Source of the DNA: Myxococcales bacterium
GTDB lineage: Bacteria > Myxococcota_A > Polyangia > Polyangiales > Polyangiaceae
Length of the DNA stretch: 64,000 bases
Assembly (NCBI GenBank): GCA_016704525.1
Contig: JADIZX010000009.1
Coordinates: 42,625-106,624, forward strand
Direction: 5' to 3'
The translations under genes and the position numbers were made by a program. Each line of letters starts with the position of its first letter. The stretch's first letter is position 1. Shown piece after piece: positions 586-47,561 of the stretch. The notes below the pieces were generated by a model. That model ran no database searches. It had not been told where the DNA came from and saw only the letters and a list, made by a program, of their open reading frames with translations.

Positions 586-678
586 GCGCGCCCGACGCTA
601 GCACCTTCGCGGGCGGGTCGTCCCCTGGAGGCCGCAGAGCGGTCGCGGCGCGCGGCCGGCTTCGAGTACCCTGCGACC

Positions 679-1650
679 GTGCCGCTCGCTCCACTGCGCA
701 CGCGTTTTGCGCCCTCGCCCACGGGGGATCTGCACCTCGGCGGGCTCCTCTGCGCGCTCGTGTCGTTCGCGCTCGCCCGCGCCTCGGGCGGCGTCTTCGT
801 GCTGCGGATGGAGGACCTCGACGCTCCCCGAACGGTGAAGGGCAGCGCCGCCCGCATCGAGGCCGATCTCGCGCGGCTGGGTCTGGCCTGGGACGAGCCC
901 GCGGCGGACGGCGCCGGGCTCCATGCGCCCTACACGCAATCGGCCCGAGGCCCGCTGTACGAGGCGGCGCTGACCACGCTGGGCGAGGTCACGTACCCGT
1001 GCGACTGCTCCCGCTCCGAGCTGCTCGCGGCGAGCGCTCCACACGCGGGCGAGGACCGCGTCTACCCCGGCACCTGTCGGGAAAAAGATCCCGCGCGCGT
1101 GATGCGACGGCCACCCGCGCAGCGGCTCCGCGTCCCGGAGGGCGAGGTCGTCGAGCTCGTCGACCTCGCCGCGGGAACGCTCACGCAAGACGTCGGGCGC
1201 GAGGTGGGCGATTTCGTGCTGCGGCGTGGAGACGGCGTCTTCTCCTACCAGCTCGCCTGTGCGCTCGACGACCACGCGATGGCGATCGATCTCGTCGTCC
1301 GCGGGCGCGATCTCCTGACCTCCACGCCCCGGCAGCTCCTGCTCGGGCGGCTCCTCGGCGCGCGCGCGGCGCCGCGCACGCTCCACGTGCCGCTGCTGGT
1401 GAACGGCTCCGGCGAGCGGCTGGCGAAGCGCACCGGCGGCATCGCGGTCCGCGAGCTGCTCGCGCGCGGCGTGCCGATGGAGGCGCTGTTCGGCGTGCTC
1501 GCCCACGCGGCGCGCCTCGCGACGACGCCCGGCCCGCTCACGCTCGACGAGGTCGTCTCCCGCGCGGCCGCTCGCCTGCCCGCGCTGCTCCGCGGGGAGG
1601 TGCCCCTACCGGAGCGCGCGACAGTGCCCGACGCGCTCCAGGGGTGCTGA
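679..1650 (+). CDS. gluQ: Glutamyl-Q tRNA(Asp) synthetase (truncated GluRS paralogue)
   Basis: Class I aaRS HIGH-region RFAPSPTGDLHLGG, followed by VFVLRMEDLD, closely matching YadB/GluQRS. About 320 aa with no anticodon-binding domain. LAKR (KMSKS-like) motif near the C-terminus. GTG start at 679 chosen just upstream of the motif; start uncertain. Confidence 0.75.
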   Translation: MPLAPLRTRFAPSPTGDLHLGGLLCALVSFALARASGGVFVLRMEDLDAPRTVKGSAARIEADLARLGLAWDEPAADGAGLHAPYTQSARGPLYEAALTTLGEVTYPCDCSRSELLAASAPHAGEDRVYPGTCREKDPARVMRRPPAQRLRVPEGEVVELVDLAAGTLTQDVGREVGDFVLRRGDGVFSYQLACALDDHAMAIDLVVRGRDLLTSTPRQLLLGRLLGARAAPRTLHVPLLVNGSGERLAKRTGGIAVRELLARGVPMEALFGVLAHAARLATTPGPLTLDEVVSRAAARLPALLRGEVPLPERATVPDALQGC

Positions 1651-1660
1651 GCGGACCGGC

Positions 1661-1821
1661 CTAGAGCGCCGAACCGCTTGATGACCGAGGATTTTCGCCG
1701 AGTTGCGAGCCGTGCGAGGCGCGACGACGAGTCCTACTGCTGCTAGGCGAGGAGGAGCAACGAAAGTACGGCGACGTAAATCGGCGAAAAGCCGACCGAA
1801 TCAAGCGGTTCGGCGCTCTAG
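1661..1821. repeat. MITE-like element with perfect 22-bp terminal inverted repeats (CTAGAGCGCCGAACCGCTTGAT) and subterminal TTTTCGCCGA/TCGGCGAAAA repeats
   Basis: Left TIR at 1661-1682 and its exact reverse complement at 1800-1821. It fills the gap between the convergent stop codons of gluQ and the kinase. The right half recurs at 41124-41190. Confidence 0.6.
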
Positions 1822-1822
1822 G

Positions 1823-3061
1823 TCAGCGGAGCCCGAGCGCTACGCCGACGACCACGCTCCCGCCGACCACGATGATCCACGCGAGCGTCCAGCCGAGCGC
1901 CCGACGCGGCGGAGTGACGGGCCGCTTCGACACGGTCTGCGACACCCGCGACCGGCTCGGGCGCTCGCGATCGGCGTCGCCCGTGCGGCGGCTATTCGGG
2001 GGGCGCGGCGAGAGCGAGGGCTCGGTGGTGCTCGCTTCGGCGGCGAACGGACCGGCGCTCGACGGCGTCGGCCCCGTGCGCTTGGTCTCGGGCACCGGCT
2101 CCTCGGGCGCCGGAGCCGGCGGGGTCTCCGGCGGGAGCGCGGCGCGCTCGGGCACGTCGTCGGGCTCGTCGGGGAAGATCTCGGCGCGCTCGAGCGAGGC
2201 CCGCATGGCGCCGGCCGACGAGTAGCGGTTGTTCGGGTCCTTCGACAGCGCGCGGAGCACGATCGCGGTCACGGCGGGCGAGAGGCCAGGCACCTTCGCC
2301 GCGGGCGAGGGCGGCGGCTCGGTGAGGTGGGCCGTGAGCACGGCGAGCGGCGTCTCCCCGCCGAAGGGCAGGGCGCCGGTGAGCATTTCGTAGAGCATCA
2401 CCCCGCACGCGTAGAGATCGCACCGGCCGTCGAGCTCGTCGCCTTGGGCTTGCTCCGGAGACATGTACTCCGGCGTGCCAAACACCATGTTGAGGGTGGT
2501 GAGGTTGGTCGTCCCGGTGCCGCTGCCGCCGTTGACGATCTTCGAGAGGCCGAAGTCGACGACGGTGGCCCGCTCGGCGGCGTCGACGAGCACGTTGTGC
2601 GGCTTCAGGTCGCGGTGGATCACCCCCTGTCCGTGAGCGCACTCGAGCGCCTCGAGCACCTGCTTGGCGATGGCCACTGCGCGCGCCTCCGGGAGCTTGC
2701 CGTCTGCGATGAGTCGGTCGAGCGGCCGGCCATCGATGCGGGGCAGCGCGAGGCAGAGGAGGGGCACGCCGCCGGCCGGGTTCTCGACCTCGCCGACCTC
2801 GAGGATGCGGCACACGTGAGGCCCTTCGAGGCGGCGCAGGATGGCGCCCTCGCGCATGAAGCGGCCGCGGATCTGCACCTCGCTCGCGAGGTGGGGGTGC
2901 ATGACCTTGAGCGCGACGGACTCGCCGCTCGCGGTATCGCGTGCAGAATACACGACGCCCGTGCCGCCTTCGCCAAGTACGCCTTCGACCTCGTACTTGC
3001 CGAGCACGACCGCGCCCCGCCGGAGGCGCTCTTCGCTGGTGGTGCTCGCCGGGCCGTCCAT
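1823..3061 (-). CDS. Ser/Thr protein kinase with C-terminal transmembrane helix
   Basis: Hanks kinase motifs: GEGGTGVVY glycine loop, VALK, HRDLKPHNVL catalytic loop, DFG, and GTPEYMSPE activation segment. Pro-rich linker and C-terminal TM segment WTLAWIIVVGGSVVVGVALGL. Start placed at the internal Met (MDGPASTT) of the 464-aa ORF. Confidence 0.8.
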   Translation of the reverse strand: MDGPASTTSEERLRRGAVVLGKYEVEGVLGEGGTGVVYSARDTASGESVALKVMHPHLASEVQIRGRFMREGAILRRLEGPHVCRILEVGEVENPAGGVPLLCLALPRIDGRPLDRLIADGKLPEARAVAIAKQVLEALECAHGQGVIHRDLKPHNVLVDAAERATVVDFGLSKIVNGGSGTGTTNLTTLNMVFGTPEYMSPEQAQGDELDGRCDLYACGVMLYEMLTGALPFGGETPLAVLTAHLTEPPPSPAAKVPGLSPAVTAIVLRALSKDPNNRYSSAGAMRASLERAEIFPDEPDDVPERAALPPETPPAPAPEEPVPETKRTGPTPSSAGPFAAEASTTEPSLSPRPPNSRRTGDADRERPSRSRVSQTVSKRPVTPPRRALGWTLAWIIVVGGSVVVGVALGLR

Positions 3062-3273
3062 CGCCGCGGCAGGATACCCGACACGCGAGCGGGCGCGAGC
3101 CTGGCGCTCCGTGCGCCAACGGTGCGTTACCCCGCACCGAGCCTGGTGCGACGCGGGTCGTCCGCAACACGCCGGACGGCGCGGCGAGCCCCGCCTCCGC
3201 CATCGCCGTCCTGCCATCGTCGGGAGTCACGAGACGCCCGGAGGGGACGATCCACCTGACGCGGGGCGCAATC

Positions 3274-3711
3274 GTGGTCACCACGTTGCCCCCGGCCAAG
3301 CAGCTCATCGAGACCGACGCGGGCACGGTGGAGCTCGGCTCGCAGGCGCGCGTCGCGCTAGTCGACGGCGCCGTGGACGTGGCGCTGCTGGCAGGGAACG
3401 CCACACTCCGACCGCGAAGTGGGCCCGAGCTCCGGCTCTCCGCGGGGCAGTCGGTCCGCTTCACAGCGAAGGGGGCGATGGCCCCGCCGGCGGCGATGTC
3501 GCCCACGGAGGTCGGCGACGCCGTGCGCGCCCTGGTCGACCCCAAGGCGGCCGCGGCGACGGCCGGCTCCGAGGAGGAGCTCCACCCGCTCCTGCGCGAC
3601 CGGCGGCTGTGGATGGCCCTCGGCGCCGGGGTGGCGATCGCCGCAGCCGTCATGGCGGCGGTGGTGCTCGCCCTCGCGAGCAGGCGCAAGGGCGGACCCG
3701 CGGCCCGGTGA
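3274..3711 (+). CDS. FecR-like domain protein with C-terminal membrane anchor; N-terminus undefined
   Basis: FecR-type region TDAGTVELGSQARVALVDGAVDVALLAGNATL...LSAGQSVRF, plus C-terminal TM ALGAGVAIAAAVMAAVVLALA. Divergent from the kinase. There is no in-frame ATG/GTG/TTG between 3061 and the GTG at 3274, so the true start is unclear. Confidence 0.4.
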   Translation: MVTTLPPAKQLIETDAGTVELGSQARVALVDGAVDVALLAGNATLRPRSGPELRLSAGQSVRFTAKGAMAPPAAMSPTEVGDAVRALVDPKAAAATAGSEEELHPLLRDRRLWMALGAGVAIAAAVMAAVVLALASRRKGGPAAR

Positions 3712-3771
3712 GACCCGTGGTGATCGAGCGATGCAGGTTGACACCCGCGCTCAGACTGCAACCTTCTGCGG

Positions 3772-5418
3772 ATGCGCCTCCGCACGCCCGCTCTTCCGCC
3801 ACGCTTGCCACGCTTGCCACGCTTGCCACGCTTGCCACGCTTGCCACGCGCCCTCGGCGCGCTCGGCTTCGCGGCGGCCGTCACCTCCTCCGCGACCCTC
3901 GCCCGCGCCGCCACGCTGGAGGTAGGGCCGGGCAAGCAGTACGCGGAGCTGTCGGCCATCGCCCGCATCGTGAAGCCGGGCGACGTCGTGGAGGTGCAGG
4001 GCGACCACACCTACGCGCCCGTCGAGTTCAACGTGAACGCCACGCAGGCGGCGCCGATCACCATCCGCGGGGTCCGCGTGAACGGCAAGCGCCCGATCGT
4101 GAAAGGCGGCGAGAACACGGTGCTCTTGCACGGAAACTTCTACACTTTCGAGGGCTTCGAGGTCACGGGCGGCACCGGAATCTGCGTGGTCCACAGCGCC
4201 AACGGGGTAACCCTCCGCGACGACGTGATCCACGACTGCCCGCGCCACGGCATCCTCGGGACCGACAGCGAGGCCGGCTCGCTCCTCATGGAGTACGTGG
4301 AGGTGTACGCGGCCGGCAGCGAGCGCGCCGGCGAGGCGCTGAAGCACCCGGTGTACATCGCGACCAACGAGAGGATGTACCCGAAGTCGGTCTTCCGCAT
4401 GCAGCACTGCTACGTGCATGACGCGAACGGCGGCAACTCGGTCAAGTCGCGCGCCGAGCGCAACGAGATCTACGGCAACTGGCTCGAGGGCGCGCAGTAC
4501 TACGAGCTCGAGCTGATCGGCCCCGACGACGACAGCGGCGACACGGTCACCGCCCCGCGCGAAGACGGGGACGTCGTGGGCAACGTGCTCCTCCAGACCA
4601 AGTCGACCTCGTACGTCGTGCGCGTCGGCGGCGACGGCACGGGCCGCACTGGCGGGCGCTACCGCTTCGTGAACAACACGTTCATCGTCGGCAGTCACGC
4701 GAACAACGCGGGCGCGATGCGGGCCTCGTACGCGCTCGACTCGCTCGAGCTCTACAACAACGTCTTCTCCAGGGCCTCCGGCCGGATGGACTACCTCGTC
4801 CGCGAGACCGATCTCACCTGGATCGCGGGCCGCCAAATCGCCGGCGCGAACAACTACATCACCCAGGGCTCGGGCAACATCCCCGCTACCCTCACCGGGA
4901 ACATCTTGGGCACCAACCCCGGATTCGTGGACCTCGCGAAGAAGGACCTGCGCCTCGCCGCCGGGAGCCCGCTCATCGACAAGGGCACCGCGACGACGGC
5001 GCGCACCGACGCGTTCGCGTTCCCCTCCCCCCTCGCCAAGGCCACCCATACGCCACCGCTTCGGGTGCTCGCGGCCGTGGGGCGCGCGTCGCCGCGGCTC
5101 GCCGTGGGCGCGCTCGACGTCGGCGCGTTCGAGGTCGGGAGCCCCACGGAGGAGCCCGGAACGCCCGGCACCGAGCCCCCGCCCGGGCCGTCCACCCCCG
5201 CGCCGGGTACGCCCGAGCCGCCGCCCGGGGTGGTGCCCGGATTGCCGGGGCTGCCGGGGGCGAGCGACGACGGGGGACCCGGCAGCACGGCCACCACGAG
5301 CTCGGGATGCGGCTGCGGCGCGGTGGGCACTCCAACCCACTCGCTGCTCGCCGGGGCAAGCCTCGTCGCAGCGCTTGGACTGCTCAGCCGCGCGCGCGCG
5401 CGGCGACGCGGTCGCTGA
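3772..5418 (+). CDS. Secreted right-handed parallel beta-helix (pectate-lyase fold) protein with MYXO-CTERM sorting domain
   Basis: Signal-like N-terminus. Repeated beta-helix turn motifs (NVxxxN, GxxGILG, VHDxxGGN). Pro/Gly-rich linker. C-terminal SSGCGCGAVG, then a hydrophobic stretch, then RARARRRGR, which is the MYXO-CTERM pattern. Confidence 0.7.
   Translation: MRLRTPALPPRLPRLPRLPRLPRLPRALGALGFAAAVTSSATLARAATLEVGPGKQYAELSAIARIVKPGDVVEVQGDHTYAPVEFNVNATQAAPITIRGVRVNGKRPIVKGGENTVLLHGNFYTFEGFEVTGGTGICVVHSANGVTLRDDVIHDCPRHGILGTDSEAGSLLMEYVEVYAAGSERAGEALKHPVYIATNERMYPKSVFRMQHCYVHDANGGNSVKSRAERNEIYGNWLEGAQYYELELIGPDDDSGDTVTAPREDGDVVGNVLLQTKSTSYVVRVGGDGTGRTGGRYRFVNNTFIVGSHANNAGAMRASYALDSLELYNNVFSRASGRMDYLVRETDLTWIAGRQIAGANNYITQGSGNIPATLTGNILGTNPGFVDLAKKDLRLAAGSPLIDKGTATTARTDAFAFPSPLAKATHTPPLRVLAAVGRASPRLAVGALDVGAFEVGSPTEEPGTPGTEPPPGPSTPAPGTPEPPPGVVPGLPGLPGASDDGGPGSTATTSSGCGCGAVGTPTHSLLAGASLVAALGLLSRARARRRGR
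3799..3847 (+). repeat. Perfect 9-bp tandem repeat (CCACGCTTG x5) in frame, encoding an (LPR)n tract in the N-terminal leader of the beta-helix protein
   Basis: Read directly from the sequence at 3799-3847; the encoded protein reads PRLPRLPRLPRLPRLPR. Confidence 0.8.
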
Positions 5419-26717: not shown

Positions 26718-27851
26718 ATGAGGCAGCTCGTCCAGAAGGCCCGGCGCGTCGTGGTGAAGGTGGGCTCGCGCACGCTCGCGAGCGACCGCGAGGTGTTCGG
26801 GCGGCTCGCCGACGCCGTCGCCCGCGCCCAGGCCGGCGGGCGCTCGGTCGTGCTGGTGTCGAGCGGGGCCATCGCTCTCGGCGCGAAGAAGCTCGGCTAC
26901 CCTACCCGCCCCAAGGAGATGGCCAAGCTGCAGGCGGCCGCCGCGGCGGGGCAGAGCCTGCTCATGCGCGCCTACGAGGAGGCCTTCGGCGCGCGCGGAC
27001 TCGCGGTCGCCCAGGTGCTGCTCACCCACGCCGATCTCGCCGATCGCGCGCGGGTCAACAACGCACGCGCGGCGCTGTCCGCGCTGCTCGACGCGCGCGC
27101 GGTGCCCGTCCTGAACGAGAACGACTCGGTCTCGGTGGAGGAGATCAAGTTCGGCGACAACGACCAGCTCTCGGCGCTGGTCGCGCCCCTCGTCGACGCG
27201 GAGCTCCTCGTGCTCTTGTCCGACATCCCGGGGCTGCTCGACGCGGAGGGCGAGCGCGTGCCCGAGGTGCGCGACATCACGAACGAGGCGATGCGCCTCG
27301 TGCGGAGCGGGAAGAGCGCCGAGGGCACGGGCGGCATGGCGAGCAAGCTCGAGGCCGCGCGCCTCGCGACGCTCACGGGCGCGCAGGTGGTCATCGCCGA
27401 CGCGCGCGCGCGCGACGTGCTCGATCGCGTGCTCGCGGGCGACGACGTGGGCACGTGGTTCGTGGCGCCCGAGAAGCGCATCTCCGCGAAGCGCGCGTGG
27501 ATCGCGTTCACTCTTCGGCCGCGCGGCGCGCTCGTGCTCGACCCTGGCGCCGCCCGGGCTGTCACCGAGAAAGGCAAGAGCGTGCTCAGCGTGGGTGTGC
27601 TGGGCGTGCGCGGCGACTTCCGCGCGGGCGACGCCGTGCGCCTCTTGTCGCACGAGGGGGTGGAGCTCGGCCGCGGCCTGTCTCGGCTCGCGGTGGAGGC
27701 GGCCACCCGCGTCGCGGGCACCAAGGCGAGCGCGCCCGTCACGCCGAAGGCGGGCGGGGGCAAGGTCGCGTCGAAGCCCGACGATGACCGCGACGTGCTC
27801 GTGCACCGCGACGAGCTCGTGGTGTTCGCGAAGGCGAGCGCCGTCGGCTAG
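26718..27851 (+). CDS. proB: Glutamate 5-kinase with C-terminal PUA domain
   Basis: Amino-acid kinase fold (VVKVGS, VLVSSGA, NENDSV, FGDNDQLSA). C-terminal PUA region. 377 aa. Confidence 0.9.
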   Translation: MRQLVQKARRVVVKVGSRTLASDREVFGRLADAVARAQAGGRSVVLVSSGAIALGAKKLGYPTRPKEMAKLQAAAAAGQSLLMRAYEEAFGARGLAVAQVLLTHADLADRARVNNARAALSALLDARAVPVLNENDSVSVEEIKFGDNDQLSALVAPLVDAELLVLLSDIPGLLDAEGERVPEVRDITNEAMRLVRSGKSAEGTGGMASKLEAARLATLTGAQVVIADARARDVLDRVLAGDDVGTWFVAPEKRISAKRAWIAFTLRPRGALVLDPGAARAVTEKGKSVLSVGVLGVRGDFRAGDAVRLLSHEGVELGRGLSRLAVEAATRVAGTKASAPVTPKAGGGKVASKPDDDRDVLVHRDELVVFAKASAVG

Positions 27852-28153
27852 CTAGTCCCCTGGAGTCGTGGTTCGTATCAGAAGTCCGGTCTTCGGTGTC
27901 ATGCCGAGGAGCGAGGGGGTGCCCCGTTTTCGGCGGCGGCGGGCCCGTCCTCAACTCGGACGTCGTTCCGCGCGGTGGAGGCGGCGCTTTGCGCTCAGGG
28001 GACAGTGGTTTCGGGTGTGACCGCGCGAGAACGCCGACCCTCGAACATGAGTATCCTCCCACCGCCGCCGAAAACGGGACACCCCCTCGCGCCCTTGTGG
28101 CGAAAGGCCGAGCCGCGCGACTTCTGGAAGGGATCACGCTTCCAGGGGACTAG
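27852..28153. repeat. ~300-bp imperfect long palindrome with nested inverted repeats, lying between proB and the protease gene
   Basis: Outer perfect inverted repeat CTAGTCCCCTGGA (27852-27864) against TCCAGGGGACTAG (28141-28153). Inner 28-bp inverted repeat GGGGGTGCCCCGTTTTCGGCGGCGGCGG (27915-27942) against its complement at 28059-28087, with one mismatch. Further partial complementarity lies between. Mirror-image peptides (PPPPKTGHPLAP) appear in ORFs on both strands. Confidence 0.55.
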
Positions 28154-39938: not shown

Positions 39939-41036
39939 GTGACGCGAGCCTGCGCCTTCCCCGTGGCGGTCCTCGCCGCCGCCCTCGCGTGCGCCACTGT
40001 CGGCGCGGAGAAGCGGGCGTTCGCCGACGAGCCGAAGCCCCGTTCCACCCTCCTGCAGCGCGCCCGCGCGAGCTCCGACCTGCTCGACACGGCGCCCACC
40101 ATCGCGGCGGTCGAGGGCACATGGTCGATCATGCTCCAGGCCGGCACCCTCATGAGCACGCGGGCGTGGCTCGGCCCGTACCCGCGCGGGCTCGCAGCCC
40201 ACGTCGCCACGCGCGCCCTCTACGGCACCACGTGGTCGGTGATGCTCGCCTCGGAGACCCTCCTCGCCCTCACCGTCTCGGGCGGCAGCTTCGCGTGGCT
40301 CGGCGAGGCCCACTACCGGGCCGATCAGCTCTTCGGCGTCGGCGTGCCCGCGGGGTGCGGCTCGTTCGGCGCGAACGGCGGCTGCGGGGTGGGGCTGGGC
40401 GGCTTCGCGGGGCTCCACGCGCGCCTCTCGGGCTCGCCGGTTTGGGTCGAGGTGTCGGGCGGCTGGATCCAGCAGCGCGTGGGCACCGACGCCCAGCGCA
40501 CGCTCGGCGAGTCGACCTGGGTGATGACCCCGATCGGGATCACCGCCGAGGGCGTGGTGAACCGGGGCGGCGCGGTCGAGCTCCGCGCGACCGGCGGACC
40601 CCACCTCCAGTTCGGCATGCACAACGGGCACGTGCACCCCACGGCGCTCGGCGACGAGACCCTCTCGGTCCCCTGGACCGAGCTCTTCCCCATGCACATG
40701 GGCCTCGGGCCGGGCGCGCGCGCCGAGGTGCGGCTCGTGCTTGGCCAGCGGGTCTCCCTCGACCTCGAGGGCGTCTTCACGCCGCTGCTGCTCTCCAGCA
40801 CCGAGGAGCACCCGCGGGCCGTCCTCGCGCCGCTCGGCCCCACGGCCGGCCAGGGATTGCCCACGTGGCGCCGCCTCGCGATAGGTGCAAGCTACATCGA
40901 TCGCGCCGTCCGCGTGGGCCTCTCGTTCTTCGGCGCGGAGCTGTCGGGGCGCCCGGTGACCACGCTCGGACACCAGGCGATCGCCCTGCGGCTCGACTTC
41001 CCGCTCGGGCTCGACTCCCGCGAATCCAGGCGCTAG
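39939..41036 (+). CDS. Hypothetical secreted protein
   Basis: Signal peptide MTRACAFPVAVLAAALACATVGA. Gly-rich, beta-strand-like composition. No recognisable motifs. Confidence 0.5.
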   Translation: MTRACAFPVAVLAAALACATVGAEKRAFADEPKPRSTLLQRARASSDLLDTAPTIAAVEGTWSIMLQAGTLMSTRAWLGPYPRGLAAHVATRALYGTTWSVMLASETLLALTVSGGSFAWLGEAHYRADQLFGVGVPAGCGSFGANGGCGVGLGGFAGLHARLSGSPVWVEVSGGWIQQRVGTDAQRTLGESTWVMTPIGITAEGVVNRGGAVELRATGGPHLQFGMHNGHVHPTALGDETLSVPWTELFPMHMGLGPGARAEVRLVLGQRVSLDLEGVFTPLLLSSTEEHPRAVLAPLGPTAGQGLPTWRRLAIGASYIDRAVRVGLSFFGAELSGRPVTTLGHQAIALRLDFPLGLDSRESRR

Positions 41037-41123
41037 CGCTCCGCGGCCACTGGCGCGAGCCTCGGGCAAGCCTCGCTCCGACGAGGCCGCCGAGCCTCTG
41101 GCTCGTCGAGCAACTCGGGTAGC

Positions 41124-41190
41124 TGCCGAGGAGGAGCGTCGAAGCGCGGCGACGCAAATCGGCGGAAAGCCGACCGAATCAAGCGGTTCG
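41124..41190. repeat. Partial (right-half) copy of the CTAG-terminated MITE-like element
   Basis: About 67 bp roughly 90% identical to 1755-1821 (GGCGAGGAGGAGC...CGGCGACG-AAATCGGCG-AAAGCCGACCGAATCAAGCGGTTCGG-GCTCTAGG). The left TIR is absent here. Confidence 0.5.
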
Positions 41191-41280
41191 GTGCTCTAGG
41201 CAGCCAGGGGTGGGCTGGTGTAACCTCGGCCCGGCCACTCGGCCCTCCGAGCCACGCCCACGCCACCCAGAAAGAGCTCT

Positions 41281-45963: not shown

Positions 45964-46375
45964 GCGCGCGCCCGCGGTCGAGACCTTTCGCGTCTTCGCG
46001 TGAGGCGAGCGACCGCGACCCGGTCCGGGTAGCGCTCTAGCTAGCTAAGCTAGTCGCTGCGCTTTCGGCTCCGGGACCGCTTGCTCCGGGTCCGGCACCT
46101 CAGGCTTGGGGCCGGTCACTTTTTCCCTTTCTCGGCCGCCTCTCGCTCCCGCTCCGCGCGCTTTGCCATGGCCTCCGCGGGCGGGCCTCACTTCCAGGTT
46201 CGCCATCGCCCGTGGTGAAGCGGTTGAAGCGGTCGCCGCGGTGGAGATCGCCGCACACGCGGGGGACGCCACCCAAGAAGCGGCCGACCGATGCGTCGTC
46301 CTCGGGGATCGGTTGGTGGCGCTCCTCACGGGCCTCATCCGCCGCTGAGGGTTCGCGCTCGCCGCCCGCGGCTTC

Positions 46376-46441
46376 GGGTCGCGGTCGCGGTCGGGGGTCG
46401 GGGTCGCGGTCGGGGGTCGCGGGTCGGGGTCGCGGTCGGGT
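46376..46441. repeat. GC-rich tandem repeat (GGTCGCGGTCGGGG-like units, ~5 copies) in a gene-poor intergenic region
   Basis: Read directly from the sequence. Confidence 0.7.
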
Positions 46442-46470
46442 GGCGTTGGTCTTTTCCCGACACACTCTAG

Positions 46471-47385
46471 CTAGAGCGACGTGTTCATCACCGCGCGCGT
46501 GACGGTGTCGGCCACGAGGGGGTACTTGTTCGCGCTCAAGGGCACCGGGAACGCCACCCCGGTGAGCTTGCAGCCGGCCTTCGCGCCGGCGAACTCCACC
46601 AGCCCGGTGCCGGGCGTGACATTGGAGATGAACACGTTGGCGCCGCGATCGCCGGCGCTGGCGGTGAGCGCGAGGTTCGGGTTGAAGGAGCCCGAGTCGG
46701 CGTACTGAACCACGGCCTCCGGGTGGCCCGGGATCGTCACGACGAAGCCGCTCGCGTCGCAGGTGGGCTCGGCCCTGTTGATCACCAGGTAGAAATGGGC
46801 CTTCGCGGCGTTGTAGGTGGCGTCGAAGGACCCCATGGTCGTCTTCGCGAACACGGAGACGTCGGTGTCGGTCCGCACGCCGGGGGGGAAGTTGTAGACG
46901 ACGCTCGCGCTCTTGTAGAAATCCGCGGGGTTCGTGGACGTCACGAGCAGGTAGTGGTTCACGCCAGTGGTCGGAGTGAAGCGCACGCGCGAGCCGGCGT
47001 AGGGGAGGGGCGCGCTCGTCCCCTGGCACGCGTCCACGAGCTGGATCGAGGTCTTGCCGCTGGGGTCGGTCCCGCTGTTCGCGGGGTTGAGCTTCACATC
47101 GGTCGCGCCCTTGTCGGTGCACGCGCCGGCCTCCGTAGGAGCGTCGGGCGAGGCGTCGACTGGCGGGGGTGCATCGGGCGTGGCAGCGTCCGTCGCCGTC
47201 GCTGACGCGTCGGGGGTCGGCGTGGTGGTCGTCGTCGTCGCCGTCGTCGTGGTCGTCGTGGTCGGCGCGGGGCCCGCGTCGGTCGCGGCCGGATCGCTGC
47301 TGCAGGCGCCGAGGGGCGCGAGGGGCGCGATCGCGCCGACGGCGAGGAGGGCGAGCAGCGGACGCTTCAGGGTGAAGTTGTGCAT
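46471..47385 (-). CDS. Secreted lipoprotein with poly-Thr linker
   Basis: Lipobox LAPLGACSS. The run TTTTTTTATTTTTTPTP is encoded by GTC/GTG-rich repeats. Cys-containing C-terminal domain. Confidence 0.6.
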   Translation of the reverse strand: MHNFTLKRPLLALLAVGAIAPLAPLGACSSDPAATDAGPAPTTTTTTTATTTTTTPTPDASATATDAATPDAPPPVDASPDAPTEAGACTDKGATDVKLNPANSGTDPSGKTSIQLVDACQGTSAPLPYAGSRVRFTPTTGVNHYLLVTSTNPADFYKSASVVYNFPPGVRTDTDVSVFAKTTMGSFDATYNAAKAHFYLVINRAEPTCDASGFVVTIPGHPEAVVQYADSGSFNPNLALTASAGDRGANVFISNVTPGTGLVEFAGAKAGCKLTGVAFPVPLSANKYPLVADTVTRAVMNTSL

Positions 47386-47561
47386 GAGGCCTAGCTAGGG
47401 GGGGGCGAGTGAAGGTGGGTACAAGCATACGCGGCCGAGGCGGAGAGGCAACCGAACATCGAGCGCCCGCGAGGAGCGGCGAACGCAGCGATGCGAGGCG
47501 GGCCGGGCGCGGCGAGCTTGGAGATTGCGTCACGCCTCGCGCGGCGCTACGAGGTCCGGGG

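Follow-up and report, generated by a model that had tools for sequence, protein, structure and literature searches.

A dispersed family of MITE-like, CTAG-bounded palindromic elements in uncultured Polyangiaceae

A palindromic element between convergent stop codons

The analysed window was a stretch of 64,000 nucleotides from a Myxococcales bacterium of the Polyangiaceae (contig JADIZX010000009.1). Near its left end, a gluQ-like gene of the glutamyl-Q tRNA(Asp) synthetase family (positions 673-1650, plus strand; PF00749, E = 2e-37), whose homologues are named GluQRS by their sources, converged on a Ser/Thr protein kinase gene (1823-3217, minus strand; Pkinase, E = 1.5e-46). Between them lay a 161-bp element (1661-1821, no strand assigned), a full-length copy of family A that was recognised by its terminal inverted repeats (TIRs), its fold and its near-identical copies elsewhere. 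An earlier sequence-only reading of this DNA had the element exactly filling the space from stop to stop. The placement between convergent stops was correct, but the fit was not exact, as the gluQ-like stop (1648-1650) was 10 nt to the left of the element and the kinase stop (1823-1825) was 1 nt to the right. The element ran CTAGAGCGCCGAACCGCTTGAT...ATCAAGCGGTTCGGCGCTCTAG, and the perfect 22-bp TIRs reported for it were borne out: CTAGAGCGCCGAACCGCTTGAT was present with 0 mismatches at the left end (1661-1682, plus strand, starting with CTAG) and at the right end (1800-1821, minus strand, with CTAG at its end). Across the window the 22-nt TIR had three matches, namely these two ends and 41178-41199 with 1 mismatch, and none in 100 shuffled sequences. 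The left arm reached 1707, and the arms of family A ran to 48 nt with a complementarity of 81%.

RNA folding, which had been suggested as a check, gave -102.5 kcal/mol (z = -10.4) for the plus strand of the 161-bp unit and -90.7 kcal/mol (z = -8.1) for the minus strand. The right arm contained two adjoining small local hairpins (window 1781-1813), TCGGCGAAAAGCCGA and CCGAATCAAGCGGTTCGG, the second of which was retained in the divergent subfamily A' (locus L010, 688-720; L numbers denote loci from the searches described below) with its stem altered on both sides, ACGGGATTCAACCCGT. Neither hairpin was found in the left arm, so the two ends of family A are not equivalent. The central motif GAGGAGGAGC was kept even in A'. 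Translation of the whole unit would yield at most 53 codons, and the variants measured 34-160 bp.

A very stable fold on both strands, the kept centre and the preference for gene 3' ends described below would suit a structured element that serves the host, for example by terminating transcription in both directions or by encoding a small RNA, with copies kept by selection and not by mobility. However, the element matched no Rfam family: the whole window at gathering thresholds gave no matches, and positions 1500-2000 at E <= 10 gave nothing relevant, the sole match near the element being due to chance (E = 8). Scans revealed no U-tract terminator on either strand between 1300 and 2200, nor did the window copy show a promoter consensus, and the G+C-rich hairpin followed by a U-run that defines an intrinsic (Rho-independent) terminator was absent from the element. 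Considered with the empty junction in close relatives that carry the same two genes, the deletion derivatives that drop the centre and retain the termini, the copies that break assemblies as repeats do, and the copies nested within one another, these results make a host function a scarcely tenable account of the family. A hairpin of -100 kcal/mol in the common 3' region of convergent transcripts could block read-through or attract RNase III.

Dispersed copies, deletion derivatives and the empty junction

A scan of one genome per species with the pattern ATCAAGCGGTTCGGNGCTCTAG returned 28 loci (about 30 copies), all of them in four Myxococcales/Polyangiaceae metagenome-assembled genomes (MAGs), and 23 of these loci were contigs of MAG GFS_9240. 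Many copies were at contig ends, where repeats are expected to lie. The metagenome scan used the pattern AGCRCCGAACCGCTTGATKM, from which CTAG was left out on purpose. Among its 41 loci, 24 were genuine copies with CTAG, or a variant of it that differed in one base, directly in front, and the remaining matches were chance 20-mers without CTAG in front. Real family-A copies were present at 17 loci of metagenome Ga0073904, in which the window organism was also found: contigs L029, L035, L049, L051 and L053 were 99.8-99.9% identical to parts of the window, which places the organism in those samples with more than 12 further copies. Comparison with the 161-bp unit by blastn showed that most full or contig-cut copies were 91-100% identical to the window copy, with near-identical ones in L005, L009, L015, L016, L044, L072 and others. 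The subfamily A', represented by L010 680-838 and a portion of L024, was 72% identical to the window copy and folded as a hairpin (z = -5.8) with eight arm pairs changed on both sides. A distant blastn search of PLSDB plasmids with the 161-bp unit gave one chance match of 58 bp, and a scan of IMG/VR with the TIR gave one chance match within a coding start. Family A is thus scattered through the genomes of uncultured soil and water myxobacteria.

Deletion derivatives that retained both termini were found at 129 bp (L009 538-666), 61 bp (L007 4620-4680) and 34 bp (L024 3305-3338), and as all three keep both ends, the termini alone are needed. A locus considered as the end of an insertion sequence (IS), L066, proved to be a solo terminus of 28 nt, flanked by a GNAT gene and clpP.

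The gluQ-kinase junction was filled as in the window in L029 (GluQ identity 99%) and L049. The same convergent pair was found with an empty junction in L030 (GluQ identity 86%), where the spacer was 10 nt, and in L031-L034 (GluQ identity 77%), where it was 20 nt. The window copy is therefore an insertion, being present at this junction in near-identical contigs but missing from it in relatives. The empty junction of L030 contained neither CTAG nor TA, and its spacer length equalled that of the window minus all 161 bp, which is compatible with insertion without a duplication, although the empty sites in L030 and L031 (86% and 77% GluQ identity) were too diverged to fix the size of a duplication. 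An all-against-all comparison of the loci returned no orthologous filled/empty pair. The empty spacer of the 77% relatives consisted of a short tandem duplication in which gtgaccgc was repeated (L031 5971-5995), so the length of this spacer is unstable even without the element. The neighbourhood of the insertion site also differed in gene content. In the relatives, a 652-aa gene with a PAAR motif was situated between the kinase and the next conserved gene (L031 7323-9458), and the window counterpart of this region (3126-3858) comprised only about 730 bp.

The sequence-only reading had proposed a dispersed non-autonomous element instead of a one-off terminator. Related MAGs and metagenomes contained dozens of copies beyond the two of the window, clearly contrary to the lack of further copies that would have refuted it. 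These copies, the derivatives with both termini and the filled/empty site all support this proposal.

CTAG ends, nested copies and two further families

Our analysis confirmed that CTAG is strongly avoided in this DNA, with 27 occurrences in the window against 90.8 +/- 9.6 expected, and at least 7 of the 27 were within repeat elements or at their ends. The ends of family A were all CTAG or a one-base variant unless truncated. Where an end was altered (CAAG, CGAG or CTTG), the other end of the same copy was never altered, and the sequence flanking CTAG was unrelated from copy to copy. CTAG was found on both sides of every intact copy, an arrangement that reads identically after a TA duplication, a CTAG duplication or no duplication. 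Duplications of TA and of CTAG are inseparable by sequence because CTAG is palindromic and merges with the TIR, and because the first and last bases of the element suit both models. Abutting or nested elements are uninformative on the size of the duplication, again because CTAG is a palindrome.

Two unrelated families had the same kind of ends. A 302-bp MITE (miniature inverted-repeat transposable element) family, B (TIR CTAGTCCCCTGGA; window 27852-28153, no strand assigned), was CTAG-bounded and unrelated to family A. The window copy lay between a proB-like gene (AA_kinase and PUA), whose TAG stop it followed directly, and a trypsin-like protease gene, and as RNA it folded with z = -9.9. Further copies of family B were found in six loci (L038, L052, L061, L063, L065 and L072), often touching copies of family A, and in L072 families B and A abutted through one common CTAG. 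A MITE-like family, C (181 bp, TIR CTAGCCCGGATTCTTCATGG), was seen as one copy in MAG GFS_9240 (L014 57-237). Families A, B and C, though unrelated in their TIRs, therefore all terminate in CTAG.

Family A also carried an internal CTAG (1743-1746 in the window copy, no strand assigned), which was a hotspot of insertion or breakage in L061, L038, L052 and the second window copy. This second copy, which the sequence-only reading had placed at 41124-41190, some 39 kb away, was real, but its coordinates are now 41127-41199 (plus strand). It comprised the right half of family A from the position of the internal CTAG to the terminal CTAG (41196-41199), was 89% identical over 74 aligned positions, and lay shortly after an ORF with its TAG stop at 41034-41036. 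Its homology to family A started at most 2 nt from the position of the internal CTAG, which makes it a half-element broken at that site, and the same half-copy arrangement was present in metagenome contigs L051 and L053. The sequence at 41037-41126 was considered as a diverged left arm and rejected, having no other copies and 12/21 matches to the TIR. In L061, the left half of family A was followed by family B at the internal CTAG. In L038, family B was at the internal CTAG of A in the opposite orientation to L061, so the two insertions were independent events. In L052, the left half of family A stopped at the internal CTAG and was joined to a remnant of an IS1182-type transposase.

About 35 element ends faced gene 3' ends and about 13 faced 5' sides, as counted with a crude GC3-based ORF caller. 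At 13 element ends, the TAG stop of the neighbouring ORF was within the terminal CTAG, and in L007 both CTAGs of the element supplied the stops of the two convergent genes. These positions suggest how the element could be accommodated. Family A would integrate into the palindrome CTAG, whose depletion in this DNA (71% G+C) is three-fold, and much of the remaining CTAG would consist of the last C of a codon and the TAG stop next to it. We infer that copies are found at gene ends and between convergent genes because the remaining CTAG is often of this kind. Insertion at such a site would regenerate the stop codon and, for that reason, should be tolerated.

The doubled motif CTAGCTAG was present at seven sites in 435 kb, whereas the frequency of CTAG predicts about 0.2 (window 27848-27855, 46037-46053, 46467-46474 and 47391-47398; L054 4041; L038 92; L065 7822). 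Four of these sites, at window 27848, window 46037, L038 and L065, were at MITE junctions or in runs of several CTAGs, and the run at window 46037 read CTAGCTAGCTAAGCTAG. The other three (window 46467, window 47391 and L054 4041) were solitary. The sites at 46467 and 47391 bracketed one 307-aa ORF on the minus strand (46474-47394) with no Pfam match. Degenerate G-rich short repeats (gggtcgcggtcgcggtcgggggtcggggtcgcgg...) were observed at window 46370-46440, directly upstream of the CTAGCTAG at 46467. We conjecture that CTAGCTAG sites are excision scars that retained both CTAGs and were later re-used as targets. A simple one-step insertion does not predict the doubled junctions at window 27848, L038 and L065.

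Origin of the family and candidate transposases

Family A resembled the known bacterial MITEs, such as Correia/NEMIS of Neisseria, RUP of Streptococcus pneumoniae and ERIC/YPAL of enterobacteria, which are non-coding units of about 100-300 bp whose TIRs form a long hairpin and which occur as tens of dispersed intergenic copies with deletion variants and insertion polymorphism among relatives. Four features by which bacterial MITEs are recognised, a small non-coding unit, TIRs, many similar dispersed copies and a filled/empty polymorphism, were present. Unlike those MITEs, family A had an unrelated TIR sequence, belonged to uncultured Polyangiaceae (Myxococcota) and always had CTAG at the junction, often as part of the TAG stop of a neighbour. 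A full-text literature search returned no reports of MITEs for myxobacteria. The novelty that the sequence-only reading had attributed to the element thus applies to the family, for which neither an Rfam match nor a paper was found, but not to the kind of element: family A is a new family of the well-known MITEs. The element is probably a non-coding internal-deletion derivative of an IS that is moved in trans, by a transposase that would recognise the family-A TIRs. The best-supported reading is that family A is a selfish element, tolerated since it lands after stops and restores them.

The partner that might move it was sought in the window and in the recovered loci. Pfam analysis of 39 window ORFs, which left out several stretches without a called ORF, revealed no transposase, and neither a Y1 nor an IS630-type transposase was seen among them. 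An IS630-type transposase was likewise not seen in any locus. No autonomous IS with the family-A TIR was found among 84 loci and the window. All loci were searched up to 3.5 kb from each end for a partner TIR, and also for pairs of TIRs bounded by CTAG, which gave only families B and C, and no locus had TIR pairs more than 500 bp apart. The IS630/Tc1- or IS200-like partner that had been suggested was not found, and the sole transposase lead belonged to the IS1182/IS5 group. This lead was in L052 (1490-1600), where some 110 bp remained of an IS1182-type (DUF772) transposase gene. The remnant was joined directly to the internal CTAG of family A and followed by an asparagine-synthase-like start (MCGIFG). 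Its translation, ...YNAKDDRGRAGYHPAMMVALLVYAHCVGK, was a DUF772 motif, and a protein search with a 43-aa version gave one 53-aa match. The relatives of the remnant were the orfA of ISs of about 1.6 kb, in which it was followed by a DDE_Tnp_1_6 orfB, and the best NCBIfam match was IS1182 (NF033551).

ISs of the IS1182 family had CTAG on both flanks in four independent copies, in L079 (2976-4594), L081 (262-1941), L082 (3-1599) and L084 (200-1845), and CTAG was at the sole available end of an IS1182-type IS in L076, L078 and L083. Their ends read CTAG followed by GAGC(G/C)TGTCGGG, with GTCGGGC hairpins, and in L084 and L076 the ends were perfect terminal hairpins (GGAGCCTGTCGGGCAAAGCCCGACAGGCTCC). 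These ISs (DUF772 and DDE_Tnp_1_6) thus shared with family A the CTAG flanks, ends starting with GAGC and GTCGG(G)C hairpins near the ends. In contrast, the IS1182-type TIR (GAGCGTGTCGGG...) had GAGCG alone in common with family A, offset by one base, besides a sub-terminal GTCGGC hairpin motif, and no such IS was found in the window. Because the likeness of the TIRs is limited to GAGCG, the IS1182 type is a candidate class and not the parent. The ISs came from metagenome contigs whose host was unassigned, and the L052 remnant was their one link to the window genome. In the literature, IS5-group elements (IS5, ISMysh01) are also flanked by CTAG, as 4-bp direct repeats (PMC9241763, PMC10379815), and some members of the IS1182 family use palindromic or stem-loop targets (PMC5678879). 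We give an even chance to a partner with a DDE transposase of the IS1182/IS5 group that leaves CTAG on both sides through a 4-bp duplication.

A different enzyme is conceivable for the same junctions. IS630 prefers TA within 5'-CTAG-3', according to Tenzen and Ohtsubo (1991) as cited in PMC2170065, and the Stowaway-type MITEs of the Tc1/mariner superfamily, like family A, combine this preference with short TIR-only derivatives. The element could accordingly be a Stowaway-like MITE served by an IS630/Tc1-mariner transposase, in which the element proper, GAGCGCC...GGCGCTC, inserts into the TA of CTAG and TA is duplicated. All junctions seen fit this model as well as a 4-bp duplication. However, it requires that families A, B and C, as well as the IS1182-type ISs, all start with G, end with C and always land in C-TA-G, and no locus and none of the 39 scanned window ORFs contained an IS630-type transposase, the only remnant beside a copy being of the DUF772/IS1182 type. 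If the solitary CTAGCTAG sites are footprints, as we infer, they also differ from the footprint with a 2-nt stagger that such an enzyme should leave (PMC2170065). An IS630-type origin is thus rather unlikely. A 4-bp CTAG duplication by an IS1182/IS5-type enzyme is favoured, both because under the TA model all families and the ISs would have to be G-first and C-last, and because the sole transposase adjoining a copy is of the DUF772 type.

The sequence-only reading had named a REP-like structured repeat as another option, and this proved less likely than a MITE. REPINs, or REP sequences with a RAYT, resemble family A in that they are extragenic, form hairpins, measure about 100-160 nt and are bordered by a fixed tetranucleotide. 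Family A could then be a REPIN/PATE-type pair of inverted REP-like hairpins, moved as a single strand by a Y1 (HUH) RAYT or an IS200/IS605 transposase next to a tetranucleotide and without duplication. The long hairpin formed by the whole unit, the two sub-terminal hairpins of the right arm, one of them kept by compensatory changes in A', the fixed tetranucleotide at the junctions and the spacer length of the empty L030 site all agree with this. Against it, the long, sequence-symmetric TIRs of family A extend to the very ends, and TIRs reaching the ends are an unusual anatomy for elements mobilised by HUH enzymes (IS200/IS605). Moreover, the left arm has no local hairpins, and both ends carry the same CTAG, which abutting elements have in common. 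Family A also shows an internal-deletion series, no RAYT was seen, and the 39 scanned window ORFs included no Y1 transposase. CTAG-flanked ISs of the DDE type occurred in other metagenome contigs, with one remnant abutting a family-A copy. We therefore regard a REPIN-type origin as highly improbable, and the MITE moved in trans as the preferred account.

More tentatively, several unrelated MITE families and the IS1182-type ISs of these high-G+C, CTAG-poor myxobacterial genomes may use one CTAG landing pad, which in many cases is a TAG stop with a C before it, so that transposition would be effectively stop-targeted with the stop restored on either strand. The new CTAGs brought in by each insertion would then lead to nesting and half-elements, and excision to CTAGCTAG scars.

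With the new family A and its two sister families, these results bring MITEs to a phylum in which the full-text search gave no reports of them. They explain assembly breaks in Polyangiaceae MAGs, in which many copies are at contig ends, and also explain long palindromes that sit right between convergent stop codons. The practical gain is modest and consists of better repeat masking and annotation of myxobacterial genomes. If the stop-codon landing pad is true, it would suggest a transposase that is strict for a 4-bp palindrome, and a mobile element that exploits the only kind of site at which an otherwise avoided tetranucleotide has to be retained.
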